From: Zancudomyces culisetae HAW-14-8
Lineage: Eukaryota; Fungi; Kickxellomycota
Reading direction: 5' to 3'
Assembly: GCA_052426225.1 (NCBI GenBank)
Contig: JBNJNM010000024.1
Span: 1-64,000, forward strand
DNA length: 64,000 nucleotides
Positions 1-27,177 of this stretch are shown here, one piece after another. Made by a program: the position numbers and the translations under genes. Position 1 is the first letter of the stretch; the number at the start of each line of letters is the position of its first letter. The notes beneath the pieces are model-generated. The model had not been told where the DNA came from, searched no databases, and saw nothing but the letters and a program-made list of their open reading frames with translations.

Positions 1-2
1 TT

Positions 3-1145
3 GAATTGGTAAATACCGACATATTTATATTGGATATAATGATGTATAAAAATGTCAAGTTAACAGATAATAATTATTTAGATAGATTAAAATATGCAAA
101 ATATATACAAGATATAACTCATAATTATATAGTATATAATGAAGAAACTCGGAAATATATATCCGCTGATATAATAAAGAATGAACGTATACCTGAAAAT
201 ATATGTTCGATAAAACTAAAAAATATATATAAAATAACAGATTATGATAGTTTGCGAAATGCTAAAGATAATATATATAATATTTCAGCAAAAATAGACG
301 GTGTTATATTGACCAATGAAAAGGGTTATTATAATACAGTGTATAAATCTAAACCAAATCCTACAGTTGATTTACAATATATTAATGGATATTTATATTT
401 AGCTAGAGAAACCAATTCGCAAAGAATATCTCATATCGAGCTGGAAGAAGGATGTATATATGAGTTTGATATAAATTTAAATCCAATTAGAAAAAGAGAA
501 GATAAACTTATTCCAAATTATTATATGCCGGTTAAAGATGATGTTATTGATAATATATGCACAGGACATGGTATTCCATGTCTAAGATATCACCATAACA
601 AAATAAAGCTTATTATGCTAAAAAAATTTAATGGAATATTATTAGATATAGGTTCTGGATTGGGTGGTGATATATCTAAGTGGGATCATTTCACTAAAGT
701 GTATGCTATAGATCCCGAGACCAGGCTTAGAAATGTATCGGCAAATATAACATTTCTAAGATGTAAAGTTCAAGATATAAAAAATATATATTTTGATATA
801 GTAAGCATATTTTTCGTACCATGGTGTAACGATTTCATCAAATTCATGCTCCGATCTAAACATGCTCTACTTATTATTATGGATAAACCTTCCGATCTAG
901 ATAGTGATAATATAAAAATTACCAAATTGGAAAACAACATGGTAAATATAAATATACCCAATACTAGTACAGCTTCGAATATAACGGAGGAAATACCAGA
1001 TATAAAAAATATAGATAATATTATGATTGGAAACGGATATAAAAAACATGATTTGACTCATAAATATAACATATCATTTGCGACTAAAGAGGAAAAAGAA
1101 CTCTCCAAAATGTACACATATATAATATACTCCAAAATAATGTAA
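3..1145 (+). CDS. mRNA capping enzyme, 5'-truncated by window start
   Basis: Identical to the C-terminal part of 25363-27177; GTase motifs DGVIL, YKSKP, REDK and MTase motif LDIGSGLGGD. Confidence 0.9.
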   Translation, partial: ELVNTDIFILDIMMYKNVKLTDNNYLDRLKYAKYIQDITHNYIVYNEETRKYISADIIKNERIPENICSIKLKNIYKITDYDSLRNAKDNIYNISAKIDGVILTNEKGYYNTVYKSKPNPTVDLQYINGYLYLARETNSQRISHIELEEGCIYEFDINLNPIRKREDKLIPNYYMPVKDDVIDNICTGHGIPCLRYHHNKIKLIMLKKFNGILLDIGSGLGGDISKWDHFTKVYAIDPETRLRNVSANITFLRCKVQDIKNIYFDIVSIFFVPWCNDFIKFMLRSKHALLIIMDKPSDLDSDNIKITKLENNMVNINIPNTSTASNITEEIPDIKNIDNIMIGNGYKKHDLTHKYNISFATKEEKELSKMYTYIIYSKIM

Positions 1146-1183
1146 TAAATATTTTATGATGTTTTTATATTAAAAATAATATT

Positions 1184-1323
1184 TATTTTTCGAATAACAA
1201 AAAATATGTATACTAATATTATCGAAATATATATATTGTATATAGGAATATAGCATATCATCAAATAACAATATATAAAAAAAGTTTTAAAACTATTTTA
1301 TTTAAATAGCTAACTATTTAAAA
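1184..1323 (+). repeat. Inverted repeat IR-A (140 bp)
   Basis: TATTTTTCGAATAACAAAAAATATG...CTATTTAAAA is the reverse complement of 11964-12104, apart from a 1-bp indel and one substitution near the inner end. Confidence 0.95.
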
Positions 1324-1506
1324 TTATTTGTCTCCTTTGAATACTAATTTCATAGCAGCGTCGAAACCATACTTTTTTATAATATATCTTATATATACTT
1401 TTTGTATATTACCTTCTAATATACAGAATCTCTTTTTGCTATCCTCCCATGTTAATCCTTCTTCTATAATTATAGAGACATTATTGTATATTTTCTTATT
1501 ATGCAT
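1324..1506 (-). CDS. Hypothetical 60-aa protein
   Basis: ATG-initiated ORF filling the gap between IR-A and PolB, with protein-like composition; no recognisable motif. Confidence 0.45.
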   Translation of the reverse strand: MHNKKIYNNVSIIIEEGLTWEDSKKRFCILEGNIQKVYIRYIIKKYGFDAAMKLVFKGDK

Positions 1507-1591
1507 ATTTGATTTAATTTGTAATTAGTCAATCACAATTAAAAAATATCTAAATTTTATAAATAAAAATCCTTAATAGTATTCAGAGACA

Positions 1592-3685
1592 ATGGATAAA
1601 GAAACAATGAAAATTTTTATCTATAAATGGGAATATAAAAATAATTGGATATATGGATACGGTATCGCTAATAAAGATAAAGATAATGTTTATATAATTA
1701 TAAAAGATTTTTATCCCACTGTAGAAGTGAAAGGTTGCAATTTAAGAAAAAAATCTCTTATAATGTCAAAAGATGTAATGGTAGATATACAAACTAGAAA
1801 ACATAAGAATAGTGTACTGGAATTTCTTTATATTAAAGGTTTGAAACAATGTTGCTGGATCAAATTAATTAATAATGATCTGGAAAATTTATCTATGCAT
1901 GATATATATTATTTATCCATAGATATAATTCCCGAATTGCATATAATGAGTTTTGATATAGAAGTCTATTCTCGCGATAGAACATTCCCAGATCCTAAGA
2001 AAAAAGAAGATTCAATTATATGCATAAGTGTCGTATCTAATAAATGCGATAATATAACATTTATTAATACCAATATAGATATAAAATCTACCAACATTAA
2101 ATATTGCAATAGCGAAGATGAATTAATTATCAATTTTTACAATTATATAAAATCTGCAAATATATTAATTGGTTATAATACACACGGTTTCGACTGGAGA
2201 TATATAAATGCTAGACATCCACTAGATTCAAAAATGATTGAAATTACATGGAGTAGTTCTGCATACACCAATAATGATATAAGCTACCCTAGTATAGATG
2301 GTATATTATGTGTAGATCTATATCATTACTGTAAACGTACATTTAATATAGACGATTATAGATTAAATACCGTTTCCAATTTTTTCAACTGCGGATATAA
2401 AGAAGATTTAAATTCTTATGAAATGTGGGATTTATGGGATAACATACATAAAAATCCAGATAAAATATCCGATATAGTAAAATATTGCGTCAAAGATTGT
2501 CTATTGGTCATGGATATCGCAAAAAAATGTTCCATGCTGGAAAGCATCATTTCTTTATCTAATATAACATATACCAATGTTGAAGAATTATTTACTAGGG
2601 GGCAGCAGATAAGAATGAAAAATATGTTATATATCGAATGTAAAAAGTATAATTATCATATGGAATTTAACAAATATGATAAAGATGAATATAAAGGAGC
2701 TATAGTTGTAGAATGCAAACCAAAATTATATAAACATGCTGCATGTATGGACTTCACATCATTATATCCTTCTATTATAATTTCCGAAAATATATGCTAT
2801 AGTACATGGAATGGTAAATTCTTTGATAAAACTAAATTTGGTATTATTCCCAACATGGTAAAAAAATTAGTTGATGCTAGAGTTAAATATAAAAATAATA
2901 AACCATATGCTAATGCATTAAAAATATGTGCAAATTCTGTATATGGAATTTTTGGTTCTGCTGGTGAGTTATGTTTTACACAAGCTGCATCCAGGATAAC
3001 TTATATAGGTAGAATAAATCTGGAAAAATCTATAACTTTTTTAACTGATAAAGGTTTTGATGTAATATATGGCGATACAGATTCGTGTATATATACAAAC
3101 GATGTGGAAATGAATGATGAAATGCATATAAAACTAGCTGATGAAGTTACTAATCTATTTCCAGATCCGATAAAAATGAAGTTTGAATGTAGATATAAAA
3201 AATTTCTTTCATTAGGTAAGAAAATGTATATAACATTGGATTATGATAATAATATTAAATATAAAGGAGTAGTAGCTGTTAGAAGAGATAGATGCAAATT
3301 TGCAGTTAGTATATATAAAGATATAACATATAGAGTAATGAATGATATATTGTTTAGAGATCACTGTAGAATGCTGATATCAAATATTCATACTTTAGAT
3401 AAATCCGAATTTATTATAAAGAAAATATACAATGGACCTTATAAAATGGATAATTATCCATTAGAAGTATATAATAGAAAATACGGACCATTAAAAAAAG
3501 GTGAAACATTTTTTGTATTCGTATCAACTACGGAAAATGGTAAAAATAATCTCGGAGATAAACTAAGACCCATTGATAATACCGACCCCATTGATTATAA
3601 GTGGTATTTAAATAACATTTCTAAATCAATAGATTCGGTGATGGAAGCATCCGGTAAAGTGTTTAGAATGGTAAACAATATATAA
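1592..3685 (+). CDS. polB: Family B DNA polymerase (Pol delta/NCLDV-like, non-protein-primed) with 3'-5' exonuclease
   Basis: ExoI FDIEV, ExoII GYNTHGFDWRYI, ExoIII YCVKD; polymerase motifs DFTSLYPSII, KICANSVYG, YGDTDS, KKMY, KGVVAVRRD; TRGQQIR and YKGAIV as in delta-like enzymes. Confidence 0.97.
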   Translation: MDKETMKIFIYKWEYKNNWIYGYGIANKDKDNVYIIIKDFYPTVEVKGCNLRKKSLIMSKDVMVDIQTRKHKNSVLEFLYIKGLKQCCWIKLINNDLENLSMHDIYYLSIDIIPELHIMSFDIEVYSRDRTFPDPKKKEDSIICISVVSNKCDNITFINTNIDIKSTNIKYCNSEDELIINFYNYIKSANILIGYNTHGFDWRYINARHPLDSKMIEITWSSSAYTNNDISYPSIDGILCVDLYHYCKRTFNIDDYRLNTVSNFFNCGYKEDLNSYEMWDLWDNIHKNPDKISDIVKYCVKDCLLVMDIAKKCSMLESIISLSNITYTNVEELFTRGQQIRMKNMLYIECKKYNYHMEFNKYDKDEYKGAIVVECKPKLYKHAACMDFTSLYPSIIISENICYSTWNGKFFDKTKFGIIPNMVKKLVDARVKYKNNKPYANALKICANSVYGIFGSAGELCFTQAASRITYIGRINLEKSITFLTDKGFDVIYGDTDSCIYTNDVEMNDEMHIKLADEVTNLFPDPIKMKFECRYKKFLSLGKKMYITLDYDNNIKYKGVVAVRRDRCKFAVSIYKDITYRVMNDILFRDHCRMLISNIHTLDKSEFIIKKIYNGPYKMDNYPLEVYNRKYGPLKKGETFFVFVSTTENGKNNLGDKLRPIDNTDPIDYKWYLNNISKSIDSVMEASGKVFRMVNNI

Positions 3686-4016
3686 TAATCCAATATTTTT
3701 AAAAGTCGAATATTACTATTTTAAATATATATTATCAATTTGTTATTTTTTATTCAACTTGAATAATTTTAATCCGAAATCATTTTTTTCGTTATAACAA
3801 ATAATATCCATTGAATACTATAAAGGATAAAAAAATATTATCTTTTTATTAGGATTAAAAATATGTTTTGATTGATACTATTATCACGTATTTTTATAAA
3901 TATATATTGATTAACAGTATAATATACATGCTATTAATAATATACTATTTGATTTGTAATTATTAATGGAACTAAACATATATCGAGTATATATCAAAAA
4001 ATATAACATATAAATA

Positions 4017-5213
4017 ATGGATGAATCAATTTCGCCCGATAATAACAACCAAGCTTCAATATCACCTTCATCAGCCAGTAAAAGAAAACATCAGAGTCAA
4101 TTTTTTGATGATAATGATACTTATATATTCGATTCTGCAAGTCATTGGTCGGATAAATACATAAAATCTGGATTAAATGTTAGATTTGCATCTATAGAAT
4201 TTAATAGAAGTATAGATAGCATTCATTATAGATATTCTCTTTTCGAAAAATTCATAAATACTATCGGTATAAAAGAATTGGATAATATAATCAAGTGTAG
4301 TTTGAATGATTATATTGAAATTGTTAAAGCAAAAAATATCATGAAGCCAGAATATATAGATGCGTTAAAAACATATACCGATATTTTGTATAAAGATGAT
4401 TTTAGAACTAGGGATGAAATGAACACTATGCTTAAAGAATTCAAAATACTTGAATTTGTTTTGGATTTATATATTTTTATGCGTGATGCATACGTTAGCG
4501 AGAATATTGTTGATTCTTATGTGGCCAAACTGCTTAGTATATTTAGATTTGCCCCAGACAATTCATTCGCTATTGGCAAATTTACCATAAATATAAATAA
4601 TCATCTTTTAGAATTTTCATCTGAAATTGATATAGGAATAACTGATAGAAAGAATTATGCTAACATTGCTATAGAAAATAAAAAGTCAACTAATGTTACT
4701 AATTCGTCTACACTTATAGGGAAAGCTAGAGCTCAATTATTTGGAGAAATGTTATTGTTATATTTCAAACGTATAGGTAAAGATGGTTTTACTTCGGAAG
4801 ATTTTAAGGATGATATGATTTTTGGTATTTTATTTATGGGGTTAATACCCAGATTTTATTATATAAAATTTACACCTGAAAATATAAAAAAAATATTAGT
4901 AAATCATAAATGTTATAAAGAATTAGAATTGTATAAAAAAAATGTTAATAAAACTAATTATGAAATAGAACGAGAAATTGAATTAAAAAATGAGTTGTAT
5001 AATTTGGAAAATATATGCGTCTTGAATGAATTAGTCGTTTTCGATGATACTGATGAAATAATAGCTAATGTCGAATGTAGACATTTTCTATATAAAATTA
5101 TGGAATTATTTGGGAGGGTTGTAACATTTTATAGCTATATTAAAGATGGGAATACTGGTATACTTCCATTGGCTACATCGTCAGAATTAATCGAATCGTC
5201 GGAAAGTATTTAA
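4017..5213 (+). CDS. Putative PD-(D/E)xK (restriction-endonuclease fold) nuclease-like protein
   Basis: SEIDIGI...IAIENKK...ARAQLFGEML...IFGILFMGLIPRFY resembles the D...ExK...Q..E...GI pattern of eukaryotic Crinkler-type REase domains; N-terminal low-complexity tail with KRKH. Confidence 0.55.
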   Translation: MDESISPDNNNQASISPSSASKRKHQSQFFDDNDTYIFDSASHWSDKYIKSGLNVRFASIEFNRSIDSIHYRYSLFEKFINTIGIKELDNIIKCSLNDYIEIVKAKNIMKPEYIDALKTYTDILYKDDFRTRDEMNTMLKEFKILEFVLDLYIFMRDAYVSENIVDSYVAKLLSIFRFAPDNSFAIGKFTININNHLLEFSSEIDIGITDRKNYANIAIENKKSTNVTNSSTLIGKARAQLFGEMLLLYFKRIGKDGFTSEDFKDDMIFGILFMGLIPRFYYIKFTPENIKKILVNHKCYKELELYKKNVNKTNYEIEREIELKNELYNLENICVLNELVVFDDTDEIIANVECRHFLYKIMELFGRVVTFYSYIKDGNTGILPLATSSELIESSESI

Positions 5214-5354
5214 TATTTTCAACGTTTTACTATATTAAGTAGTTTTATATTTAAAATATATTCTAATATAGCAAAATTGAAAAAATAAAAATAATACATA
5301 TAACTTACAATATTTAATTATGAAAATAATGAAAGTTATTATCCCGATCAAGAA

Positions 5355-5549
5355 ATGAAACTATCTATAAATCGTATAGATGATGGTATTGAATTTGTAG
5401 AATCTAAATATAAAGGTATGTATTTTATAAAAAATGTGATTCATAACACATATTATAATATAAATGATGAAAATTATAGTTTCCCTATATTTATATCCAA
5501 TACTAAAAATATAAAAGATGCGTTATTATTTCAGTTTATTTATTTTTAA
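5355..5549 (+). pseudogene. Inverted partial duplicate of the 3' end of the 306-aa gene (5958-6878)
   Basis: KLSINRIDDGIEFVESKYK...IKDALLFQFI matches the last ~65 aa of the 306-aa protein. Confidence 0.75.
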
Positions 5550-5931
5550 TATTTTATTTGTTTTAAAGGTTGATTCATGCTTATTTATACTATCAGGATA
5601 TAAATCCAAACCATTTCACAATGTAGGTTCGGCATGTGTCTATTTATACAATGATGTGAAAATGAAACAATACGACAGTTTTGCTTTAGGAGTTAAAACT
5701 ATGGGATTCTATGAAGGAAATTATCATGTCGAACTGGGAATAGGTGATTTAAACATTGATTTTTCCAATGGCACATATAAAATAAATACCACGCCATTCT
5801 ACACGTGTAAAGGTAATGGCTATAAACTTAATTTTGATTGTTATGATCTTTACTCGTCGGTATACTGCCAGACATTCTGCGATAATGCTTTTGGAGCATG
5901 CATAAATTGGTTTAATAATGAAGTTCAATAA
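5518..5931 (+). CDS. Small secreted Cys-rich protein (candidate toxin/effector)
   Basis: Signal-peptide-like MRYYFSLFIFNILFVLKVDS followed by a ~117-aa mature region with 7 Cys. Confidence 0.6.
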   Translation: MRYYFSLFIFNILFVLKVDSCLFILSGYKSKPFHNVGSACVYLYNDVKMKQYDSFALGVKTMGFYEGNYHVELGIGDLNIDFSNGTYKINTTPFYTCKGNGYKLNFDCYDLYSSVYCQTFCDNAFGACINWFNNEVQ

Positions 5932-5957
5932 ATTAAAAATTTTAAAACTTTAAAATA

Positions 5958-6878
5958 TTAAAAATGAATAAACTGAAATAATAACGCATCTTTTATATCA
6001 TCAATATTTTTTATTTCATATGGATGCCCGAAATTAATGTCTTCTATAGCATAATATGTGTTGTATTTTATATTTTTTATATAATATGCGCTTTTATATT
6101 TAGATTCTACAAACTCAATACCGTCATCTATACGATTTATAGATAGTTTAAAATATGAATTTATATAATATTCCTCTCTACTGATAAGATCCATAACTTT
6201 TAGATAAGTCTTTTCTTTATCATCAATATCATCTTTATAGAATTCAAAAAATATTCCAAATGGTGAGTTATAAAATTTATCATCAAATATATACACTTTT
6301 CCTATATCATTTTCATTCGGAATGTCGTCATCTATGTTTATAGTAATATAAGCAGTTTCACCCTCATGAGCTAAACGCATAAAAAATGCACCTTTATTTC
6401 GAATACTGATACCATTCATTGTTATTACATCTTGCGTGTCAGATGCAAAATTGGACAAATTATCAGTATTTATCATATTAGACGAGTCCAGTTGTAATAT
6501 AATTGCATTTTTATCGGAATATTCAAAAGTCATACTTTTATTTAAATATAGATCTCCACACTTTATTCTATATACATCACAAAATCTGTAGTCATTAAAT
6601 ACTTTATCCAGAATAATTATATTATCATTTAAATGATCACACGCACCCATTTTATCGTTCATCATGCATAAATATTTATTATTATGCGCAATATACATTT
6701 TATCTCCATTTTCATTTAATAATATGCTAAATTCTTCTCCCAAAGAGTGATGTTCATTTTTTATACAGAAAATATTGTCATCGATAGATACAGATTTAAA
6801 CTCACCAGGTATTATGAATTTAAAATTTGCATAATTACAAACAATACTGCTTAAAGGGTTGTATTCGTCTATATTCAT
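5958..6878 (-). CDS. Hypothetical protein, possible beta-trefoil (ricin-B/fascin-like) repeats
   Basis: Repeated short hydrophobic strands such as MYIAHNNKYLC, VYRIKCGDLYL, YYIKNIKYNTYY...LLFQF; the fold is inferred only. Confidence 0.5.
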   Translation of the reverse strand: MNIDEYNPLSSIVCNYANFKFIIPGEFKSVSIDDNIFCIKNEHHSLGEEFSILLNENGDKMYIAHNNKYLCMMNDKMGACDHLNDNIIILDKVFNDYRFCDVYRIKCGDLYLNKSMTFEYSDKNAIILQLDSSNMINTDNLSNFASDTQDVITMNGISIRNKGAFFMRLAHEGETAYITINIDDDIPNENDIGKVYIFDDKFYNSPFGIFFEFYKDDIDDKEKTYLKVMDLISREEYYINSYFKLSINRIDDGIEFVESKYKSAYYIKNIKYNTYYAIEDINFGHPYEIKNIDDIKDALLFQFIHF

Positions 6879-6939
6879 TTTAATATTAATTTAAATATTT
6901 TAAAATGAGTTATATATTCATATAATAATAGGTGATGCT

Positions 6940-7407
6940 TCAATGTCTCAAATCCCTTAAATATGATATCAGATCGGTTAATTGTGTTGATGCATCAAAA
7001 CTGAAAAATTGATATATATTCGTACCTTCATTATTCATAGAAAAAATTCTTACAGAACTTGGATATATAATCATAGCTTTAGAGCAATTAAGTATTTTAA
7101 GAAAGTGCATCATTAATTTATCATCTTCATCACTATTAGATATTAAAGGCGTACATAATATAGCTATTATATTTTTATGTATATTTATATCTTCTACATA
7201 TTGTATAATATCTGATTTATGATATTTCACGGCACGCTTAGTTGATGTTATTGTTCTTCTTATATAACCATTTGACAAATTTAAACCCGAATAATGACAG
7301 CATAAAATAGCTATACTGTTATTTTTATATTTATCAGATGAATTGAAAAATAATTCTTTCAGATTATTAATTTCTATACTAGACATTTTAAAAAATAAAT
7401 ATTTCAT
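6940..7407 (-). CDS. Hypothetical protein, candidate toxin immunity factor
   Basis: 155-aa ORF overlapping the toxin stop by 4 nt (ATGA); no signal peptide; function inferred from position only. Confidence 0.5.
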   Translation of the reverse strand: MKYLFFKMSSIEINNLKELFFNSSDKYKNNSIAILCCHYSGLNLSNGYIRRTITSTKRAVKYHKSDIIQYVEDINIHKNIIAILCTPLISNSDEDDKLMMHFLKILNCSKAMIIYPSSVRIFSMNNEGTNIYQFFSFDASTQLTDLISYLRDLRH

Positions 7408-10400
7408 ATTCCTTTTTTTCTTTGCTGTATAATTACAGGCTCGTTACTAACAGGAAAAAACTCATTGAAATAATTTCTTACTCCTTGTCGTAATCCTGTT
7501 CTCACAGGAATAATAGCTGATTGCTGACATAGAGTTGGGTTGAAATTTAATAAATATACTCGAAAAGCCCCCCCGGGAGGTATAGGTCCAACGCGAGGAG
7601 ATGATAAAGGATTTAATATGTCGTTTTTTTTCCAAATTCCAGTCGCATTTAAAAAATGGCGAAATTGTATACCGTCATATGTATTTTCACTTTTATAAAC
7701 GCATCTAACAGAAATATAATATTCGTCCGGATTTGTTATGTTATTCATTCCTTCACTCATACTTCCAAATGGAAATTCATCTCTTTGATAATCTGGTATT
7801 ACCATTGTTTTGTTATCACTTCGATTAATTATTCGACCGGGTAGATTAACGCACGAATGCTGATCTAGATAAGGGTCGTCATTCTTTCGACCGTCTGGTC
7901 GACGTGTAAATGTATTATATGCAACGGGTAGTAGTTCTTGCGGGACATCTATTGCATCATCATCCCCATTAATAAGTCTAAGTCTATTAATTTCTGTAAA
8001 CACGAAATAAATATAAGCATTGCATGCTACACCTACGCTCCGACCGTGAAAGTTTACATAGTATATCGGCTCATCATCTCCATCATTATTTTCTGTTATA
8101 GTTTTCGTAAATATATTATAATCATCATCTATATTGGGATTTCTAACACAATAATTTTGCGGACTCGTAGCTTTTTTATACCAGTTAAAATAAGCTTTAT
8201 GTTGTAAAATCATAGGCATATCACTTACCGGTTGAATACTATACTGATCCTGATATTTTTCCATATCATACCCTATTAAATCATCATTTATTACAAAATC
8301 AACAGGATACTTTGAATTTGTGGGATTATTTATTAATTCTATTGTATGTTCTAAATTCGCTTGATTACTATTAATAATTTTCATTAGATCATCGGGGATG
8401 GGAAATGTGTCTTTATTATAATTTGCTATTATCGTGGCGATAGCGAGTAAACCAAGTGAAATTGCTCCGACAACTACACCAGAAGCTAGCCCTGGTATTG
8501 ATATCGCCAATAAAGCAGCTTGTAACCCACTTGTATACACTTGAACTCCAGTATAAACAAAAACACCAATAGCTGAAGTATTTATCATTCCAACAAAGGG
8601 TTCATTTAATCCTCTCTTTTTATTATTATAATTAATGGAAGAACCAAATACGATACATCTCTTATAATAAAAATATAATATGGCGTAGTTATTATCATTT
8701 TTAACATCTATATTAGTTATAAACTTATCCATTTTTGTAAATAATTCATCATAATCGGCTTTTGAACTTATAGAATATACTATATTGAATTTATCTTTGA
8801 ATTGTTTTATATCACTATCATAAGTTAAAGATGCATTGCTTCTCCAGTATGATATTACACCTTTTATATAATCAACCATAATATCTCTTAAATAGTTACG
8901 CGTACATGATGATGACAGTAGTGTATTGAAATCGTATATATCTGATGTGTCGCATGATATTTTATTTCCGGCATCTAGATCCTCTGCCCACGTAACAGTA
9001 CCCCCCATATTGGCGAATGAGGCTAGATCATTTCTGAAGCTAATTTGTTCATCTGTAAGATAAGAAACCCATTGATCTGTACCATATACCAGAATCTGAG
9101 ATAGATCGTCATCATAATGTTTTCTTATAGTTTCGCTTTTCAGAATATCTCTAATTTCCCCCAAAGCTAAATAACCAGGTGTATTTGTACATTTACCCGG
9201 TTTTGCTTTTGATTCTATACCGGCAAATCTACAATCTGGACCGTAGCAGTTGGGATCTTCCATGCCAAAAGTTCTACCATACTTAGCAATACCTAATAAA
9301 ACTTTATTGGATTTTACGCCTGCATGTGTTATCAAAGCTAGCATTTCTAAAGTTTCAGTCATATTTACGTGCGACTTAAGATAATTACCTGTCCATAAAT
9401 TGGTATAATCCCATTGTCCGTGCAAATCATAAGTCATAAATACTATATAATCTGTAAATTCCGACATTATATCTATTATAAAATTCTTAAGATACCAATA
9501 ACTAGCTGGTGCCGCTATAGATACAGTCTTACCTAATGGATAAAGTTTAATAAATAATTCATAAACAAACAATGTATAATATATTGGATCATAAGAATCA
9601 CCAATTGGAACACCTGGAATATCAGTAGCTCCTGGATATTCCCAATCTATATCTACACCATCCAGATTATTATCGATAATAAATTTGGCCACATTTGCAG
9701 CAGATACTTCCCAATTAGCTACAGCTTTTCTAAGATTATTATATGTACCACTATCTGTACTTATACCCCAACCACCTATACTTAATATTCTCTTAATACC
9801 TCTAAGAGATTTAAAAGCTTCGAATTGCTCTCTAGCTCTGAAATCCATTTGGACATTATAATCAACAATATCGGCAAATGCATAATGAAGATGGGTATAT
9901 TGAGACCAGTCTATTTCGTCAATACGTTTGTTCAAGCATGGCCAGTTTTGATTCCATGTTTCATAATAAGCAATTTTTCTAAAATTAGAAGGGGGTTCGG
10001 ACATTACGTATTCGATAACACAATTACTATAACAACCTGTAGTGCCTGGAGCGTTAGTTGTACTGTTTTTCTTTTTACAGAAGTCTTCGGTAATGCCACA
10101 ATAACCCCATTCACCACAGCAAGCGTTTAAAGGACAATCGGTATTATACTTATCTCCGGGTGCTAAAGGACCACATTCTGCATTGGGATCTGGAGTTGGA
10201 ATAGGAGGTTTACCAGGAGATATACATAATTTCTGACCAGGGTATAGTTTATCACACCCATCCCATTTCCATGTACTTTTATTATAATCGAATAACTGAG
10301 TTGACGAAATGCCAGCGTCATCTATAATTTTCTGACACCAATCACCAGGTTGCACTGTTATAAAATAACAATTGCCATCTTTATCCGGAGTTGGATCAGG

Positions 10401-10853: not shown

Positions 10854-10913
10854 ACTTATATAATATATTTATGATATATTTATGATATATATTTTAATTA
10901 GATTAATAAAGAA

Positions 10914-10923: not shown

Positions 10924-11000
10924 ACATTGTCTAATAAATATAAATATTATATACCAATATAAAAATAGAATATACCAATATAAAATAGAATATAATTGAA

Positions 11001-11963: not shown

Positions 11964-12104
11964 TTTTAAATAGTTAGTTATTTAAATAAAAATAGTTTTA
12001 AAACTTTTTTTATATATTGTTATTTGATGATATGCTATATTCCTATATACAATATATATATTTCGATAATATTAGTATACATATTTTTTGTTATTCGAAA
12101 AATA
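11964..12104 (-). repeat. Inverted repeat IR-B (141 bp)
   Basis: Reverse complement of 1184-1323. Confidence 0.95.
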
Positions 12105-16887: not shown

Positions 16888-17331
16888 TTATTCGTTCGAT
16901 AAATTTTCAATTAATTGTTTCTCCTCTTTACTCAATTTTTCTATCTTAACAGATTTAGTTTTTTTATCTCTTGTATGTACCTCTCTCTCATCCTGTGACA
17001 TATGAGACCAGCAACTGTATTCGTTACTTTTAGGTGCCATACATTGTTGATCATTCTTCTTTCTTCTAGTACATCTGTTTTCTTCACTGATAACCTTCTT
17101 GCTTTTTGTCGATTTTATATTCGATAATTTCATATCATCCAACATATTAATAAGAGTAGATATATCCACATCTTCATTATAATTATCTAATTTATCTATA
17201 ATTTCATCAATTGTCTCATCTCTTATAGCATCTCTCAATTCCTTTTGAATTCTTTTACTCATTTTTATTAATATTATTCTGCTTATATAAAAATAATATA
17301 TATTAAATTTGCAGTCATCATCTAAATTCAT
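16888..17331 (-). CDS. Small protein with NCLDV-type C3H Zn finger (likely start at 17262, MSKRIQ)
   Basis: RCTRRKKNDQQCMAPKSNEYSCWSH = C-x9-C-x9-C-x2-H. Confidence 0.6.
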   Translation of the reverse strand: MNLDDDCKFNIYYFYISRIILIKMSKRIQKELRDAIRDETIDEIIDKLDNYNEDVDISTLINMLDDMKLSNIKSTKSKKVISEENRCTRRKKNDQQCMAPKSNEYSCWSHMSQDEREVHTRDKKTKSVKIEKLSKEEKQLIENLSNE

Positions 17332-18736: not shown

Positions 18737-18969
18737 TGTAGCTGTAAGATTGATATCATATAAATCTTTCAGCGTACCTTATAAGTTACTAATATCACAT
18801 ATATTAGGAGCAAATTGCGATAAAATAGGTAAATTAAGACTTAAACTCGAGGCCAATAGAAATCTGATTCAAGAAGGAGTTTACATACTACCACCCATCA
18901 GATGGATTACATCATTTGATGTCATTGATACATTTGAAATTGAATGCATAGTGGATAACGTTAAAGAAA

Positions 18970-19425
18970 ATGAAGTGTGCTATATGCCTGGAAACAAATT
19001 GCAAAAAGAACAATATGTTAATGGAAAACATGGATTATTTTTCGGAAATAACACAGAAAACTTTAAGCGCTTTTCATAGAGCCGGTTTAGATTCTGATGT
19101 TTATGATGAAATTAATTCTCTAAAATTAGCAATTAGCGAAAAAACTATGATATTAATTACTGCTGAAGAAATTGAAGGGGGGAAGGTTAAAAGATTTTTT
19201 GATACGGGTGATACAGATATAGTTGATATAAAAGATATATACACTACAAAATATTATACCAAAGATACTGATAATTTAAGAAAACATTCGGTCGTTATAG
19301 ATGCTTTAAATAGAAAAGAAAGTAATATATCCAAAATATATAGTTCAAAGAATATTGATAATTTGAAATGCGATAGAAAAAAAATTGATAAAATAACTGA
19401 ACATATATTTTTTAAACGCAATTGA
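18970..19425 (+). CDS. RNA polymerase small subunit carrying the Rpb1 trigger loop and C-terminal region
   Basis: FSEITQKTLSAFHRAG aligns with Rpb1 IGEPATQMTLNTFHFAG; RKHSVVIDAL and DKITEHIFF recall Rpb1 region H. Confidence 0.75.
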   Translation: MKCAICLETNCKKNNMLMENMDYFSEITQKTLSAFHRAGLDSDVYDEINSLKLAISEKTMILITAEEIEGGKVKRFFDTGDTDIVDIKDIYTTKYYTKDTDNLRKHSVVIDALNRKESNISKIYSSKNIDNLKCDRKKIDKITEHIFFKRN

Positions 19426-19938: not shown

Positions 19939-21276
19939 ATGGATGAATATCAAATAATAAAAAATATAATTCCGAATTATTCTTTCGAGTGTGATATAAT
20001 AGATATCTTTCATCAGTTAAACATTTCAAACACAAGAGAAATCTATGATGAAAAAATAAGAAACATAGAAGCAACAACAAATTACGATAAAGCTAATAAA
20101 TTTTCATTGTTATATAAAGATAAATTCGTATGTATAGACTGCGATAGAAAAATATTTTACGTTTTCAATAACGGTATATGGGAAATTGATCATGGTAATA
20201 TATGTTTGATTAAATATATTATAAATTTCTATCCATCTTGCGGTAGTAATTTCAATAAAAGAAAGAGTTTTATAAATGATATAGCACTACATTCTTATAA
20301 TAAAAAATTTACAGAGAAATTAAGCAATTTTAAATCTATTAGAATTGGGAATGTATCATTTGATGTATTTAACGGCAATCTGAGAGATGGTTATCCCAAT
20401 GATTACTGTTCTATAAATACTCACATGCCTTTAAATATAGATTATAAAGAGAAAGTATTGCGTATGCTAAAAGATATATTCCCTCAAGAAAATATAATGA
20501 AATATTTCTTAAGATATGCCGGCTCATTGTTAATACCTGGAAATAAAGATAAAATATTCATGATTTGGAATGGTATAGGTAATAATGGCAAATCTATATT
20601 GGCGAGATTAATCGAGTTGGCTATGGGAGAATATTCTATAAAATTACCGACATCTCTTGTAACTGGTAAAAGAACAATATCGTCTGGAGCCACACCAGAA
20701 CTGGCTCTATTGGAAAAAAAATTGGTAGCATTTCTACAAGAACCGTCTCATGATGAGAAGTTAAATATAGGGATAGTTAAAGAACTCACAGGAAATGATA
20801 CCATATATGTAAGAGGACTATATAAAGAAGGTTCGAATATAAATGTGCTTGCGAAAATAATATATATAGTAAATACAACAGATAATATAGCAGTATTGGA
20901 AGAAGCTATATGGAATAGAATAGTTGTTTTACCATTTATATCCAATTTTACAGATAAAATAATACTCCCTAATGATTTACCTGTAGATAAAATGTTAGGT
21001 GGTAAGTTAAGAACATATGCCGGTTCATTTATGGAAATAATGATTGAAGAAGCGCGTAGATATATAAATGAAGGATTGTTGGAATGTAAAGAGATAGAAG
21101 AATCAACAAGAGCCGTACAAGACGAGAATGATATTATAATTAAATATATAAAACAAAATAGATTCAGTAGTAATAGCTACGAAGGATTGATTGCTTTTAT
21201 TAGAGATTTTCATCCGCAAGCGCAAGTACCGAGTTTTAAGTTATTCAATAAAAGAATAAATACTATAAATGTATAA
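19939..21276 (+). CDS. D5-like superfamily 3 helicase (D5_N + P-loop NTPase), no primase domain
   Basis: FYVFNNGIWE and LRDGYPNDYCS (D5_N); Walker A GIGNNGKS; ATPELA; Walker B region AFLQEP; VKELTGNDTIYVRGLY; AIWNRIVVLPF. Confidence 0.93.
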   Translation: MDEYQIIKNIIPNYSFECDIIDIFHQLNISNTREIYDEKIRNIEATTNYDKANKFSLLYKDKFVCIDCDRKIFYVFNNGIWEIDHGNICLIKYIINFYPSCGSNFNKRKSFINDIALHSYNKKFTEKLSNFKSIRIGNVSFDVFNGNLRDGYPNDYCSINTHMPLNIDYKEKVLRMLKDIFPQENIMKYFLRYAGSLLIPGNKDKIFMIWNGIGNNGKSILARLIELAMGEYSIKLPTSLVTGKRTISSGATPELALLEKKLVAFLQEPSHDEKLNIGIVKELTGNDTIYVRGLYKEGSNINVLAKIIYIVNTTDNIAVLEEAIWNRIVVLPFISNFTDKIILPNDLPVDKMLGGKLRTYAGSFMEIMIEEARRYINEGLLECKEIEESTRAVQDENDIIIKYIKQNRFSSNSYEGLIAFIRDFHPQAQVPSFKLFNKRINTINV

Positions 21277-21292
21277 TATTACATCGGTAGTA

Positions 21293-21421: not shown

Positions 21422-21937
21422 TTAAATTTCGGATAATGTGAGTTTAGATATATCTATTTCCAGATCACTATCTTTTACTTTGCATATTACTATTTCATTA
21501 GCATTTAACTGAATAGTAGTTTTTGTATTCATTTGGAAAATGGATTGGACAGTAATTGATATACATGCGTAGAAAATTTTACCGGTTAAATCGGTATTTA
21601 GAATTTTTCTAGTTTTTACATCAGTTATTCTTGTTTTATCATTTATGTTTATTTTAATGTTGCCGTCATAAAAAGGATCAGTTACTGTTATGTCATATTT
21701 TTCTGATATTGAATCTATTATATCATTTATCATCTTTGTTAGAACTTTAGATTTCAACAAAATTTGTCTCTTGTTATATTTAGTTGTTGTTATACCATCT
21801 ATTATCATGAATTTGTTTTTCTCTGATATCTGTAGAATCCCTCCATCATAGTATATATCGATTAGAAATCCCTCACCCAATTTTCTTTTATCGTCGGATA
21901 AACTTATCAATGTTTTATCTATGCTATTATATATCAT
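21422..21937 (-). CDS. Hypothetical protein, candidate OB-fold ssDNA-binding protein
   Basis: 171 aa, beta-rich C-terminus (ACISITVQSIF...TIQLNANEIVI) and short acidic tail; fold is inference. Confidence 0.35.
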   Translation of the reverse strand: MIYNSIDKTLISLSDDKRKLGEGFLIDIYYDGGILQISEKNKFMIIDGITTTKYNKRQILLKSKVLTKMINDIIDSISEKYDITVTDPFYDGNIKININDKTRITDVKTRKILNTDLTGKIFYACISITVQSIFQMNTKTTIQLNANEIVICKVKDSDLEIDISKLTLSEI

Positions 21938-21979: not shown

Positions 21980-23743
21980 TTATTCTTTGAGATATATTTG
22001 CTCTTCAAAATAGTAGTTATTTTTTGAAATATAGTCTATTATGTTGATATTTTTATCAATTTTGAGTGTTTGTTTTATTATTTCCCATTCATCACGATTC
22101 ATATTATCTATAAGTTTACCTCTTCTTTGAAATTTTTTATTCTTCGTTATATCTATATATGTAAATCTTAATCTTCTATCTACACAACTTCTCCATATAA
22201 GTGGAGTGTTTGGATAATCGCGAGTTGTAAATATGTTCATATCCGAGCATACGCTTATAGATTTCTTTCGATTTACGATATCATAACACTCAGCTTTATC
22301 CGGATATACATTGCACCATGATATTTTATTTTCATTTATATCGAAGCATTTCCTAAAATCCCATATAAAATCATCAATTTGAAATATTTGTATATTATCG
22401 GGTATTGGTGGATTGAATATCTCGGCTAGAGGTTTGCATACGTTTTCTGTTTTAATATCATTCATAACTTCCAATATCTTTATATTTTTATCGTATGCTA
22501 TTTTGTACATATCAATATCTATAGAATTTAAGCATACATGCTTATATATTTTTATTTGTACATTGGATGTATGAGAACCTTTTCGTATAACACGGCCTAT
22601 AGCCTGATTTATATATCCGTAATTCCAATACGGTGTTAATATATGTACATTTGTTACGTTTTTCAAAGTTATAGATTCGTTAAGCACGTTACTTCCTATC
22701 AAAAGACGTATTACTTTTCCGTTATAATTTTGCAAGCTATTGAAATCCCGCAATATATTATTTATTTCTTCGGTAGATACATTACCATTTATTACAGCAT
22801 AAGATTTCTCCTGACCTCTTACTGTTGTCCAACCTAAATGATTTAAAACATCGCATAAAAACGTAATCCCTCTTTTTATATAATAAACAAAAACTACAAC
22901 CAATTCATTTTCTGGTATGTTATTTATAAGAAAATTTATTTTGGCTGACTGTTCTTCTAAAGGAATATTTTTGTTATAAACACCGGTACTTAATGTTAGC
23001 TGACGTAATGTTGTATATATATCTTTGCATTTTTTACCTTTTTCATCATTATATTTTTTTAACTGTAAACCTTTCATTTCGGTCGCGAATAGCATATTGT
23101 TATTGATTATATCTTTTTCCGAATTATTCGAATATTTTATATCTTTATTTAGTATATAAACACCATATCCGTATTTAAACGTGTTTTCGGCATAAGCTAT
23201 TGGCGTTTCTATGGGTAGCATATTGCATAATGATTTCAATTCGTTAGGATTATCTATCATTGGCGTGGCTGATATTATAAGAAGTTTCGAGTTGGTGGAA
23301 TCATGCATTTTCTTTTTTATATATGTATATCTGCTAGCATTTTCTCTCATATTGTGAGCTTCATCTATAATTACCAAAGAATTGTCTATATTCACTTTAT
23401 TTCTCGAGAAGCTTGTTAAACCGTAATATTTTATATTCATACTTTTACTATTTAATCTATTCTCATTTATAAAAATTTTATATTCATTCTTAAAATTTGT
23501 TATTGTATTTGTGTTATGCGATATGAAAATGACATCAAAACCATTGATATTGAATAAATATGATAAGGCAGCTGCGCAGTAAGTTTTTCCAATTCCCAAC
23601 TGAAATGATAGTAGTAGACTTCTATATGGTGTTTTAGGATGCATATATGATAAAACAAAATTTTGTTCCGGGGTTGTTGTGGTAAATGATACATTTTCGA
23701 TGCAGTTATGAGGGTTATCTTCGTAATATATTGGAATATTCAT
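21980..23743 (-). CDS. SF2 DExH helicase/ATPase, poxvirus D6/D11 (VETF-S/NPH-I) family
   Basis: PEQ..HPKTPYRSLLL, Walker A LGIGKT, IIDEAHN, SATP, FNSLQNYNGKVIRLLIGS, ILTPYWN, QAIGRVIRKGSH. Confidence 0.92.
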   Translation of the reverse strand: MNIPIYYEDNPHNCIENVSFTTTTPEQNFVLSYMHPKTPYRSLLLSFQLGIGKTYCAAALSYLFNINGFDVIFISHNTNTITNFKNEYKIFINENRLNSKSMNIKYYGLTSFSRNKVNIDNSLVIIDEAHNMRENASRYTYIKKKMHDSTNSKLLIISATPMIDNPNELKSLCNMLPIETPIAYAENTFKYGYGVYILNKDIKYSNNSEKDIINNNMLFATEMKGLQLKKYNDEKGKKCKDIYTTLRQLTLSTGVYNKNIPLEEQSAKINFLINNIPENELVVVFVYYIKRGITFLCDVLNHLGWTTVRGQEKSYAVINGNVSTEEINNILRDFNSLQNYNGKVIRLLIGSNVLNESITLKNVTNVHILTPYWNYGYINQAIGRVIRKGSHTSNVQIKIYKHVCLNSIDIDMYKIAYDKNIKILEVMNDIKTENVCKPLAEIFNPPIPDNIQIFQIDDFIWDFRKCFDINENKISWCNVYPDKAECYDIVNRKKSISVCSDMNIFTTRDYPNTPLIWRSCVDRRLRFTYIDITKNKKFQRRGKLIDNMNRDEWEIIKQTLKIDKNINIIDYISKNNYYFEEQIYLKE

Positions 23744-24012: not shown

Positions 24013-24019
24013 ATAATAT

Positions 24020-24068
24020 ATAGCTATATAAAATATAAATAGCTATATAAAATATAAATAGCTATATA
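24020..24068. repeat. 19-bp tandem repeat, ~2.5 copies
   Basis: ATAGCTATATAAAATATAA repeated next to the GC hairpin. Confidence 0.85.
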
Positions 24069-25165
24069 TTATCTTTTATTTTATTTTTATTTTTATTTTT
24101 ATTTTTATTTTTATTTTTATTTTTGGTTTCATTCAATGATCTTAATCTAGCTTGCTCCATTAGCATTTTATGACGAATGTCTTTTTTTTCTTGTTCTTTT
24201 TCGTATCTCATCTTCTCAATAGCTTGTTCTTCTTTAAATTTTCTACTAAATTCTTCTATTTCTTCTCTTTCCTTAGCTTGCATTCTATATTTATCAAACT
24301 GTATTTGCATTTCTGGTGTTATTAGTTGACCACGCCATGTATCTCTATTTAGACTATCTTTACCAAATCCTGTTTTTACATTTCTTATATCAATATCGTG
24401 ATTTATACCATCATCACCGCTATCTGATAATATTTCAAGTTCTTGAGTGGGTTTAGCTTCTTGGATAGGTTTAAGTTCTTGAGTGGGTTTGATATTATAA
24501 ATTACACGCATATATCTCTGTTTCTTATTCGGATACTCATAAGAATCTTTCTCTTTTTTGGCGAATACTATAAGTTTATCTTCGTAATGTTTATTGCAAA
24601 ATACCGATGAACCTCTTTTATCTAAACAGAAAACTCCATCTAACCATATACATGTGCGAGCTTTAATTCTTTTATTTATAGAGAATCTTTTATGTAATCC
24701 GCACAATAATAATGATCTCTTACCTATCTCTTGTTCATCTAAATTCTTTATCATTCTATTACAATAAGTGATGCTATCTTTAGATTTTACTATACAACGA
24801 CCATCTATATGAGCTTTACTTTTTGTATGAATACCACATGTTTCATATCCATCCAATGCTTTGTATTTGCAATTTAATCCTTTTTTGGTTAAAGCGTTAC
24901 ATTTAATATTAATCTCAGACTTAATATTAATCTCGGACTTAATATTAATCTCGGACTTAATATTACTCCTTATTTTGCTATGTATTCCGCATTTTTCATT
25001 ACCCTGTTTTTTTATACTTCTATTACAATATAGTTTATTTTTCATTATATAAGAACATCTACCTTCTATATGAGTATCACTACTTATATGCTTACCACAT
25101 ACTTCATAGTTAATAAGTGGCTTATATGCACATTTAACCCCTGATAAAGTTTTTGCTATACACAT
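24062..25165 (-). CDS. Multi-C3H Zn-finger protein with coiled-coil and NK-repeat tail
   Basis: Five C-x6-10-C-x9-19-C-x2-H units (e.g. CNALTKKGLNCKYKALDGYETCGIH); NIKSEI repeats; (NK)n tail. Confidence 0.7.
   Translation of the reverse strand: MCIAKTLSGVKCAYKPLINYEVCGKHISSDTHIEGRCSYIMKNKLYCNRSIKKQGNEKCGIHSKIRSNIKSEINIKSEINIKSEINIKCNALTKKGLNCKYKALDGYETCGIHTKSKAHIDGRCIVKSKDSITYCNRMIKNLDEQEIGKRSLLLCGLHKRFSINKRIKARTCIWLDGVFCLDKRGSSVFCNKHYEDKLIVFAKKEKDSYEYPNKKQRYMRVIYNIKPTQELKPIQEAKPTQELEILSDSGDDGINHDIDIRNVKTGFGKDSLNRDTWRGQLITPEMQIQFDKYRMQAKEREEIEEFSRKFKEEQAIEKMRYEKEQEKKDIRHKMLMEQARLRSLNETKNKNKNKNKNKNKNKIKDNI
24903..24965. repeat. 18-bp coding tandem repeat, ~3.5 copies (NIKSEI)
   Basis: TTAATATTAATCTC(A/G)GAC repeated. 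Confidence 0.9.
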
Positions 25166-25290
25166 TTTTTATATTCGATTTTACTGGTTTGATTTGAGCA
25201 AAATAGTTGTCCTAATTTTTTATGTGATAATTCGTATATCAATATATTCTCGATATTAATATCAATTTTTATATTTTGAAATCCTAAAGA

Positions 25291-25302
25291 ATCATATATG
25301 AT
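25291..25302. promoter_or_regulatory. Palindromic double ATNTGA (UCS-like) motif between the divergent Zn-finger and capping genes
   Basis: ATCATATATGAT; ATATGA ends 62 nt before ATG 25363. Confidence 0.5.
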
Positions 25303-25362
25303 ATATATTTATTATAAAAAAACATCGATGATAAAAAATAAAAAACAATCTAACATTATATA

Positions 25363-27177
25363 ATGGATGATAAAATACAAAAAATCGAGAATATATTAAA
25401 TGTATTCGAATCTATACAATGTAATGTATTACATACTAATATAGAATTGGAAGCTAGAATGTGTATACCCCCACCTACAAACTTTATAGATTATGAGACT
25501 ATAACAATTCAATATTATAAATCTCAAGATTTACCAACATTAACTATACGAAAGGAATATGGAAAGGATTATATAGAAACAAAAGAACTAGTCGATAGAG
25601 TTATTATAGAAAATATTAATATAGTATGTTCTGTAGAGAAAAGATATAGAAATTTTGATTATATATTAAATAAACACATATTAAGAAAAATCGACAGGCT
25701 CAAAATACAAGATAATCCATTAGTAGTTATAAATAGAGAAAATAATATATATATGTTGGAAGTTGAATTTGAGAGAGATACACTATCCGAGACAATAGAT
25801 ATATTGAATAGTTATTCTGTACCATTTTGGCCGTGTGTAAAACCACAAGATGCTTACGCATCAGAAATATTATCTAATATAGATAATAATATATTATATA
25901 TATCGCCTAAATATGATGGCGAACATGCTGTTATGTATCTCGATACTGAAACAAGGGTAATATGTATAATTAAAGATAATGGAGAGATAAACATGAGCAA
26001 TTCATTGGATAATTTTGATACTGTTTATGAAGTTGAATTGGTAAATACCGACATATTTATATTGGATATAATGATGTATAAAAATGTCAAGTTAACAGAT
26101 AATAATTATTTAGATAGATTAAAATATGCAAAATATATACAAGATATAACTCATAATTATATAGTATATAATGAAGAAACTCGGAAATATATATCCGCTG
26201 ATATAATAAAGAATGAACGTATACCTGAAAATATATGTTCGATAAAACTAAAAAATATATATAAAATAACAGATTATGATAGTTTGCGAAATGCTAAAGA
26301 TAATATATATAATATTTCAGCAAAAATAGACGGTGTTATATTGACCAATGAAAAGGGTTATTATAATACAGTGTATAAATCTAAACCAAATCCTACAGTT
26401 GATTTACAATATATTAATGGATATTTATATTTAGCTAGAGAAACCAATTCGCAAAGAATATCTCATATCGAGCTGGAAGAAGGATGTATATATGAGTTTG
26501 ATATAAATTTAAATCCAATTAGAAAAAGAGAAGATAAACTTATTCCAAATTATTATATGCCGGTTAAAGATGATGTTATTGATAATATATGCACAGGACA
26601 TGGTATTCCATGTCTAAGATATCACCATAACAAAATAAAGCTTATTATGCTAAAAAAATTTAATGGAATATTATTAGATATAGGTTCTGGATTGGGTGGT
26701 GATATATCTAAGTGGGATCATTTCACTAAAGTGTATGCTATAGATCCCGAGACCAGGCTTAGAAATGTATCGGCAAATATAACATTTCTAAGATGTAAAG
26801 TTCAAGATATAAAAAATATATATTTTGATATAGTAAGCATATTTTTCGTACCATGGTGTAACGATTTCATCAAATTCATGCTCCGATCTAAACATGCTCT
26901 ACTTATTATTATGGATAAACCTTCCGATCTAGATAGTGATAATATAAAAATTACCAAATTGGAAAACAACATGGTAAATATAAATATACCCAATACTAGT
27001 ACAGCTTCGAATATAACGGAGGAAATACCAGATATAAAAAATATAGATAATATTATGATTGGAAACGGATATAAAAAACATGATTTGACTCATAAATATA
27101 ACATATCATTTGCGACTAAAGAGGAAAAAGAACTCTCCAAAATGTACACATATATAATATACTCCAAAATAATGTAA
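25363..27177 (+). CDS. Trifunctional mRNA capping enzyme (triphosphatase, guanylyltransferase, N7-methyltransferase)
   Basis: TTM motifs ELEAR and LEVEF; GTase KYDG, YEVEL, ILDI, DGVIL, YKSKP, REDK; MTase HNKIK and LDIGSGLGGDISKW. Confidence 0.93.
   Translation: MDDKIQKIENILNVFESIQCNVLHTNIELEARMCIPPPTNFIDYETITIQYYKSQDLPTLTIRKEYGKDYIETKELVDRVIIENINIVCSVEKRYRNFDYILNKHILRKIDRLKIQDNPLVVINRENNIYMLEVEFERDTLSETIDILNSYSVPFWPCVKPQDAYASEILSNIDNNILYISPKYDGEHAVMYLDTETRVICIIKDNGEINMSNSLDNFDTVYEVELVNTDIFILDIMMYKNVKLTDNNYLDRLKYAKYIQDITHNYIVYNEETRKYISADIIKNERIPENICSIKLKNIYKITDYDSLRNAKDNIYNISAKIDGVILTNEKGYYNTVYKSKPNPTVDLQYINGYLYLARETNSQRISHIELEEGCIYEFDINLNPIRKREDKLIPNYYMPVKDDVIDNICTGHGIPCLRYHHNKIKLIMLKKFNGILLDIGSGLGGDISKWDHFTKVYAIDPETRLRNVSANITFLRCKVQDIKNIYFDIVSIFFVPWCNDFIKFMLRSKHALLIIMDKPSDLDSDNIKITKLENNMVNINIPNTSTASNITEEIPDIKNIDNIMIGNGYKKHDLTHKYNISFATKEEKELSKMYTYIIYSKIM

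Follow-up and report, generated by a model that had tools for sequence, protein, structure and literature searches.

A virus-like element from the fungus Zancudomyces culisetae with a putative RNA-primed, giant-virus-type replicon

We analysed a window of 64,000 nucleotides from Zancudomyces culisetae HAW-14-8 (assembly GCA_052426225.1, contig JBNJNM010000024.1, positions 1 to 64,000), which consists of 2.46 copies of a 26,032-bp unit arranged head-to-tail, with 26.8% GC. We consider it probable that this unit is an autonomous relative of the yeast killer and helper plasmids in the fungal cytoplasm, with a replicon that is likely RNA-primed, isomers mediated by an inverted repeat (IR), and a GH18-DNase protein as cargo. 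Judged from its genes, the element belongs with the fungal virus-like elements (VLEs), because its RNA polymerase (RNAP) shares 44% identity with pGKL2 ORF6 and the VLE promoter motif is present. It would represent a new VLE lineage that is not protein-primed, sister to the yeast VLEs. It appears to transcribe like a VLE and likely replicates like a nucleocytoplasmic large DNA virus (NCLDV). New are the type of replicon, the arrangement with a flipped segment and their relevance to how VLEs originated.

The family B DNA polymerase (PolB) matches PF00136 (E=1.3e-46) and gave no match to PF03175, the protein-primed polymerase (pPolB) family, in Pfam. When a profile of 16 family sequences was compared with the PDB, Pol delta was the best match (3.5e-80), and no protein-primed polymerase was present among the best 60 of the 119 matches. 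We take the TPR1 and TPR2 insertions of pPolBs to lie in the intervals between motifs B and C and between C and KxY. In all 16 rows these intervals are 49 aa and 50-52 aa, no longer than in longer PolBs outside the family, and 89-129 aa lie ahead of Exo I. Because the intervals and the region before Exo I are so short, there is no room for a terminal protein (TP) or for TPR1/TPR2, and the window PolB thus lacks the hallmarks of pPolBs, to which VLEs add an N-terminal TP and a vOTU domain (bioRxiv 2024.03.18.585575).

The 300-aa primase open reading frame (ORF) alone has no match in Pfam; however, the motifs of an archaeo-eukaryotic primase (AEP) and a Zn finger are invariant in an alignment of 28 of the 37 available sequences, and the family profile matches PrimPol (3.5e-22) and the poxvirus D5 primase domain (2e-9). 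The D5 helicase, which is encoded separately from the primase and contains the only Walker A motif in the called ORFs, matches C962R of African swine fever virus (ASFV; 1.9e-11). Since an AEP primase, a D5 helicase and a PolB resembling Pol delta are all encoded by the element, its copying would likely proceed by RNA-primed synthesis and not from a protein primer. An earlier sequence-only reading of the window had named these three genes and the lack of a TP, and both points are borne out.

The transcription genes are those of a VLE. The fused RNAP aligns collinearly with Kluyveromyces lactis pGKL2 ORF6 over 1093 positions, and fused RNAPs account for 33 of the 42 matches in its homologue search (37-52% identical). 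The superfamily 2 (SF2) helicase matches vaccinia D6 and D11 (VETFS, 8.4e-11; NPH-I, 4.2e-8), as the sequence-only reading had proposed. Its trifunctional capping enzyme is likely: the 604-aa candidate carries putative capping motifs and has a sub-threshold nucleotidyltransferase match (E=0.001), and a PDB search gave no match. As for the claimed pair of RNAP subunits, the fused one stands and the small one is a candidate by gene order; the 151-aa candidate gave no match to Rpb1 C-terminal pieces, in a comparison made without a yeast YKP7 sequence. Presumably DUF5483, DUF5482 and DUF5474 correspond to pGKL2 ORF9, ORF5 and ORF8. These assignments fit the YKP order in the text of Fig. S2 of PMC13348850. 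The motif ATNTGA, described as the VLE promoter (PMC6211774), starts 55-100 nt upstream of 12 of the 19 ORFs, compared with 2.1 in shuffles (maximum 8 in 5000), within a distance range chosen post hoc when the positions were already known; it ranks top of 1024 patterns of the same shape. Transcription is predicted to proceed by the fused RNAP, the capping enzyme and the D6/D11 helicase acting at these promoters. Among the features that define yeast VLEs, the window thus has the fused RNAP, the helicase, ATNTGA and, by putative motifs and a weak match, the capping enzyme; two others, a pPolB and linear ends with terminal inverted repeats (TIRs), were not found.

Close relatives occur in Cunninghamella and Umbelopsis. 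Among the matches listed, the family comprises 15 PolB, 27 D5 and 17 RNAP clusters: 15 of the 120 PolB matches are 43-50% identical, after which identity drops to <=35%, and 27 of the 97 D5 matches are 45-53% identical. Members are named from C. echinulata, Umbelopsis sp. WA50703 and U. isabellina; identities to the C. echinulata proteins are 43% (PolB), 49% (RNAP) and 49% (D5). PolB and RNAP accessions (four of each) lie on a 68,961-bp C. echinulata contig together with two listed accessions of D5, D5 is also present in two Umbelopsis assemblies, and further contigs are apparently common to family PolB and RNAP (eight) or PolB and D5 (four), with equal contig size as the proxy. Synteny and IRs of the relatives are taken from accession order, size-matched contigs and the figure text of PMC13348850. 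That 2026 survey describes a C. echinulata contig of 69 kb in which a 16.2-kb 'helper VLE' is present four times, in alternation, and shares 94% identity with C. blakesleeana Node83; the Node83 polymerase is placed in 'Group 5'. From the species, the size and the number of copies, we take this to be the 68,961-bp contig. The listed U. isabellina polymerase (2,034 bp) fits the 677-aa family members. The survey handles Group 5 polymerases as pPolBs, calls a fused TP unclear, and does not contain the words 'primase' or 'circular' in its main text (PMC13348850). The C. echinulata polymerase has no pPolB features and a D5 lies on its contig; our comparison suggests that the published Group 5 polymerase is not protein-primed. 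PolB, RNAP and D5 of the window each fall in one clade with the Cunninghamella and Umbelopsis elements, a test of Group 5 membership that covers these two genera of a group which also includes proteins of Coemansia and Podila.

The sequence-only reading knew of no described class with this gene combination. This has to be given up, since relatives are published (PMC13348850), though as protein-primed elements; likewise, toxin and replicon on a single molecule is no novelty, since killer and helper genes fused on one molecule are already known (PMC11848437). What holds, as far as sequence goes, is an autonomous capsid-less replicon of cytoplasmic type, in which the transcription genes are those of a VLE and the replication set is of NCLDV type. 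Literature searches found no description of a primase- or D5-bearing VLE, a point on which subscription papers and unexamined supplements could bear. Several side observations concern related sequences. A 73.8-kb contig of Linderina pennispora encodes a D5-like protein in a separate D5 clade and may represent a similar element in a zoopagomycete. In the public assembly, the contig that bears the U. isabellina D5 is 569 kb long, while the reassembly of PMC13348850 yields a 36-kb high-copy element, which may reflect a mis-join or an integration. Debaryomyces-type VLE RNAPs are filed under Senegalia sp. (a bacterium) and Vairimorpha ceranae (a microsporidian), likely through contamination. A D5 match on a 13,149-bp contig, the size of pGKL2 contigs, was set aside as a coincidence.

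The period of 26,032 bp follows from a 99.993% match between positions 1-27355 and 26033-53388, and the unit contains 19 main ORFs (about 88% coding), in agreement with the claim of a repeating unit with a full set of about 19 genes. A 141-bp IR, whose two copies are identical over their first 116 bp, splits the unit into segments of 10,640 and 15,111 bp (Table 1). The idea of a plain repeat array holds for two full copies; the third is not direct, since it is an exact reverse complement in which the 10.6-kb segment between the IRs is flipped, and the sequence-only reading had missed both the IR and the flip. At the junction of the third copy, the outer flank derives from IR copy a and the inner variants derive from copy b, which is the pattern expected of a crossover within the identical IR core; owing to this junction, three of the four junctions expected of a two-isomer circle are present in the contig. 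The IRs likely recombine to give two isomers and concatemers. No recombinase or integrase was recognised among the window ORFs by Pfam, PHROGs and NCBIfam searches, and we therefore infer an exchange that is homologous or replication-linked.

Near-identical pieces of the element occur in four public runs from three studies. In run X1 the IR core forms a separate contig at two-copy depth (29.4, compared with 12.5-18.8 in the long flanking contigs). The PolB-side IR copy is shorter by 16 nt in runs X1 and X2, where part of its terminal palindrome (window 1299-1315) is missing, while run X3 agrees with the window. A contig of run X3 that joins the AEP-side flank, the IR and the PolB side was considered as the reciprocal isomer and was not counted as proof, its other flank being uncovered. 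Two imperfect intergenic palindromes of 55-60 bp (19595-19648 and 24013-24072) are hairpin-capable and are candidate origins or terminators.

No capsid protein, A32 packaging ATPase or integrase was matched in Pfam (20 ORFs), PHROGs (15 ORFs) or NCBIfam (18 ORFs), as had been claimed; this absence is at the sequence level, and single-sequence AlphaFold models of the 472-aa and 306-aa proteins are of low confidence (pLDDT 31 and 34). Compared with Nucleocytoviricota, the window thus has PolB, the D5 primase-helicase functions and transcription enzymes, and no double jelly-roll capsid or A32 ATPase at that level. No family member came up when IMG/VR was scanned with YKP9, RNAP and a sister-clade D5. 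Scanning for an RNAP motif yielded two giant-virus contigs only and no match in prokaryote genomes, and PLSDB gave no match to the element; in scans with PolB alignments, generic motifs dominated the matches listed.

In phylogenetic trees, family PolB, D5 and RNAP are each monophyletic. With outgroups, the family RNAPs and the yeast-side RNAPs are sister groups (support 83 and 70; named yeasts make up 5 of the 12 yeast-side rows). When nine rows were dropped and L164 was added, family support was 99 and L164 was sister to all VLE RNAPs (SH-aLRT 97). L164 (1-16134) is a compact, unclassified NCLDV-like contig of IMG/VR, the nearest relative of VLE RNAPs in the trees, which encodes a 966-aa Rpb2, an Rpb1 divided between two genes (as in VLEs), TFIIS, UDG, Rpb5 and a FEN1-like protein, and which carries the top PolB match outside the family. 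Its PolB clade consists of unclassified contigs of 7-50 kb. The contigs L162 and L163, considered as nearest RNAP relatives, were rejected since L164 is nearer in the RNAP tree; they (L162:9583-14796 and L163:9583-14853) are AT-rich giant-virus contigs with an Rpb2 of about 1750 aa, the VLE-type LRHQVxDKxQ motif and a long branch. An SF3 helicase of Physcomitrium patens, presumably an endogenous giant-virus relic, is among the nearest non-family D5 proteins.

The cargo region contains a predicted secreted protein of 1149 aa, with a hydrophobic N-terminus, the GH18 motif DGVDIDWEYP (DxxDxDxE), KKR at 745-747 and a hydrophobic stretch near 792. Its C-terminal NucA/NucB DNase domain scores 27.3 bits (cut-off 23.8), and a PDB search with the nuclease domain gave no match. 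The chitinase-based protein of the sequence-only reading is therefore present, and its toxin role is predicted. It is a predicted secreted chitin-binding GH18 carrier of the zymocin type, with a fused NucA/NucB domain. The zymocin system has a separate tRNase gamma subunit and Imm-family immunity; no such subunit was identified in the window, where no homology search aimed at it was made. The element would pay its way through this protein, which may deliver the DNase into competing fungi, with the 155-aa ORF as candidate immunity protein. Chitinase-NucA/NucB fusions are already known. For the 398-aa protein, the Atlas look-alikes (0.97) are unnamed fungal clusters, with Mucoromycota the commonest, and a restriction-nuclease lead reaches only 0.80; an Atlas search with the 472-aa protein gave no usable match. 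The 3' end of the 306-aa gene (5941-6149) and its 79% identical inverted duplicate flank the 137-aa ORF. All features are collected in Table 1.

Table 1. Features of the window, in order of position
Feature	Position	Strand	Basis or remark
IR copy a, 141 bp, short palindrome at its end	1184..1323	+	again at 27216-27355; hybrid copy at 53248-53388
60-aa ORF, possibly YKP11-like by size	1324..1506	-	no Pfam, PHROGs or NCBIfam match
PolB, 697 aa, Pol-delta/NCLDV-like	1592..3685	+	PF00136, family profile, motif spacing
398-aa protein, PD-(D/E)xK nuclease-like by eye; candidate resolvase or cargo	4017..5213	+	
Partial inverted duplicate of 3' end of 306-aa gene, likely remnant	5358..5567	+	79% identical
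137-aa protein, hydrophobic N-terminus, 7 Cys; candidate small secreted cargo	5518..5931	+	
306-aa protein	5958..6878	-	single-sequence fold, pLDDT 34
155-aa non-secreted protein; candidate immunity protein by position only	6940..7407	-	overlaps chitinase stop
Predicted secreted protein, 1149 aa: B-lectin, LysM, CBM18, GH18, NucA/NucB	7404..10853	-	Pfam, motifs, domain search
307-aa protein, hydrophobic N-terminus, Lys-rich tail	11001..11924	+	
IR copy b	11964..12104	-	
AEP (PrimPol-like) primase, 300 aa	12146..13048	-	D65-x-D67, S107-x-H109, D141, C-terminal Zn finger
Fused Rpb2-Rpb1 RNAP, YKP6 orthologue, 1094 aa	13227..16511	-	Pfam, homologue search, pGKL2 ORF6 alignment
147-aa ORF, YKP10-like	16888..17331	-	gene order only, against Fig. 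S2 text of PMC13348850
DUF5483 protein, 472 aa, presumably YKP9 by DUF and order	17318..18736	-	Pfam, E=6.8e-62
DUF5474 protein, presumably YKP8 by DUF and order	18717..19079	+	Pfam
151-aa ORF, likely small RNAP subunit YKP7	18970..19425	+	gene order
D5-like SF3 helicase, 445 aa, without fused primase domain	19939..21276	+	PHROGs, NCBIfam, homologue searches
DUF5482 protein, presumably YKP5 (ssDNA-binding) by DUF and order	21422..21937	-	Pfam, E=5.3e-25
D6/D11-like SF2 helicase (YKP4)	21980..23743	-	Pfam and vaccinia matches
367-aa Cys/His repeat (Zn-finger-like) protein	24062..25165	-	weakly like an L164 protein, pairwise E=8e-4
Likely trifunctional capping enzyme (YKP3), 604 aa	25363..27177	+	putative motifs; weak ligase-type domain
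Third, partial copy, inter-IR segment inverted; second isomer junction	53248..64000	-	exact reverse complement of 1352-12104

The native molecule is likely circular or concatemeric DNA, as seen in one assembled contig. The assembly shows a head-to-tail repeat with internal IRs and not a linear form with TIRs, and to this extent the circular topology proposed earlier stands as a prediction for the native form; one relative, from Cunninghamella, appears to be linear and to have TIRs. A linear molecule with TIRs or hairpin (poxvirus-like) ends, whose array and flip were replication concatemers or an assembler artefact at the repeat, is in our judgement improbable. The IR does terminate in a palindrome; this palindrome is, however, partly deleted in one IR copy of runs X1 and X2. 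TIRs are reported for C. blakesleeana Node83, and the C. echinulata relative, by its accession order, has four copies in alternating (head-to-head) orientation with TIR sequence in between, whereas Umbelopsis elements are described as without TIRs and with internal IRs (PMC13348850). Moreover, two full copies follow each other in the window without any end, and the two segments face the repeat in opposite orientations, an arrangement not to be expected of two linear molecules that share a TIR. Still less credible, to the point that we give it very little weight, is a true small virus or viral segment whose capsid was unrecognised or supplied in trans. About nine ORFs without assignment and the two low-confidence folds leave some space for it; against it stand the lack of a capsid or ATPase match, the VLE-specific fused RNAP, and five IMG/VR scans with no family member among the matches listed.

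The origin of the lineage is more evenly contested. In the standing model, cytoplasmic plasmids derive from polintons, the ancestral pPolB was kept in those of yeasts, and NCLDVs swapped to PolB and D5 (PMC4405056); a polinton origin of the cytoplasmic plasmids is also held by bioRxiv 2024.03.18.585575. In a rival reading with a polinton origin, VLEs were protein-primed from the start and this lineage later took PolB, AEP and D5 from a co-infecting NCLDV, so that the element is derived and no missing link. We regard this as rather unlikely, although the PolB tree leaves the family apart from the L164 clade and the position of the YKP10-like 'telomere-binding' gene is kept (order only). L164 is nearest in the RNAP tree and bears the top non-family PolB match, the top non-family D5 matches lie on contigs size-matched to PolBs of the same clade, and three replication genes would have to be gained, compared with one pPolB in the alternative. 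We lean somewhat towards an ancestral PolB-AEP-D5 replicon, with VLEs as reduced NCLDVs that later acquired pPolB, because the sister lineage appears not to be protein-primed and L164 is the nearest RNAP relative; an NCLDV or poxvirus origin of the VLE transcription genes has been proposed (PMC6211774). The yeast pPolB type would then best be understood as a sister branch in which this replicon had been replaced. The reduction from an NCLDV claimed by the sequence-only reading is thus favoured and unproven. Of the tree placement it had called for, the RNAP groups with the pGKL2 type and L164, PolB stays apart from the L164 clade, and the deep branches of D5 are weak. The stronger form, in which these elements are living capsid-less Nucleocytoviricota from the L164 lineage, reduced to vertically inherited fungal plasmids of 16-50 kb that retain the ancestral PolB-AEP-D5 replicon, with pGKL2 arising by a polinton pPolB swap, seems to us evenly balanced between true and false.

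Several points weigh against the reading that we prefer. The topology and the flip are seen in one assembled contig, the run contigs being unable to resolve the 116-bp repeat, and the TIRs and alternating copies in Cunninghamella fit a linear form. A PolB tree of 41 rows places the family apart from the L164 clade (a grouping of the two is not rejected, p-AU 0.198), deep branches of the D5 tree are weakly supported, and all trees are quick IQ-TREE or FastTree analyses with long branches. VLE transcription genes have also been placed with eukaryotes, implying a host origin (PMC10328495). Besides the post hoc choice of its distance range, ATNTGA occurs on the opposite strand at 7 of the 19 ORFs, and the yeast promoter spacing of 20-40 nt (PMC6211774) is shorter than that in the window. 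As for the cargo, related toxin candidates are described as giving no inhibition of Saccharomyces cerevisiae, and the biocontrol of two cheese fungi was reported not to involve yeast VLEs that encode a comparable GH18-NucA/NucB protein (PMC8472843).

The cytoplasmic plasmids of yeasts are cited as the link from protein-primed polintons to giant viruses (PMC4405056), and a replicon that is not protein-primed would revise the origin of killer plasmids. A sister lineage with the same transcription machine and an NCLDV replicon makes the direction of the swap testable in cultured fungi. It also suggests that, of the five groups into which the 2026 VLE survey sorts the polymerases, one does not use protein priming; this bears on the helper 'Supergroup H' of that survey (PMC13348850). 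With a core of 15 kb for replication and transcription in the cytoplasm, such an element would offer a very small model system for DNA replication of the NCLDV type. If true, the capsid-less Nucleocytoviricota reading reverses the nuclear-escape view of yeast plasmids as pre-NCLDV relics and reassigns the published 'Group 5 pPolB'.

Among known systems, the yeast 2-micron plasmid is also circular, exists as two isomers, has an inverted repeat that splits it, and encodes a tyrosine recombinase; none was found in the present element, and the likeness noted is one of architecture. Nucleocytoviricota, including L164, share a PolB of primer-dependent type, D5, AEP and the D6/D11 helicase; in L164, Rpb2 is short and Rpb1 is split. 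The window differs from them in its 26-kb size, its fused, reduced RNAP and the lack of a detected capsid or A32 ATPase, and L164 additionally has TFIIS, UDG, Rpb5 and FEN1-like genes. Yeast VLEs of the pGKL1/pGKL2 type are not known to have an AEP or a D5. They resemble the window in the fused RNAP (44%), ATNTGA, the helicase, the likely capping enzyme and a predicted secreted GH18 protein; unlike the window, they are linear, with TIRs and a TP-fused pPolB with TPR1/TPR2 (bioRxiv 2024.03.18.585575). The Debaryomyces element pDH5A, likened by its published description, is linear with its own B-type polymerase; its ORF2 product of 1226 aa is a secreted GH18 protein that binds chitin and includes a NucA/NucB fragment (PMC8472843). 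The closest counterparts are the Group 5 VLEs of Mucoromycota, which have the same YKP blocks and of which the Umbelopsis elements, as in the window, are without TIRs and have internal IRs and chitinases (PMC13348850); the window differs in standing on a separate branch, in the inverted orientation of its YKP7-10 block and in having D5 within the YKP cluster.

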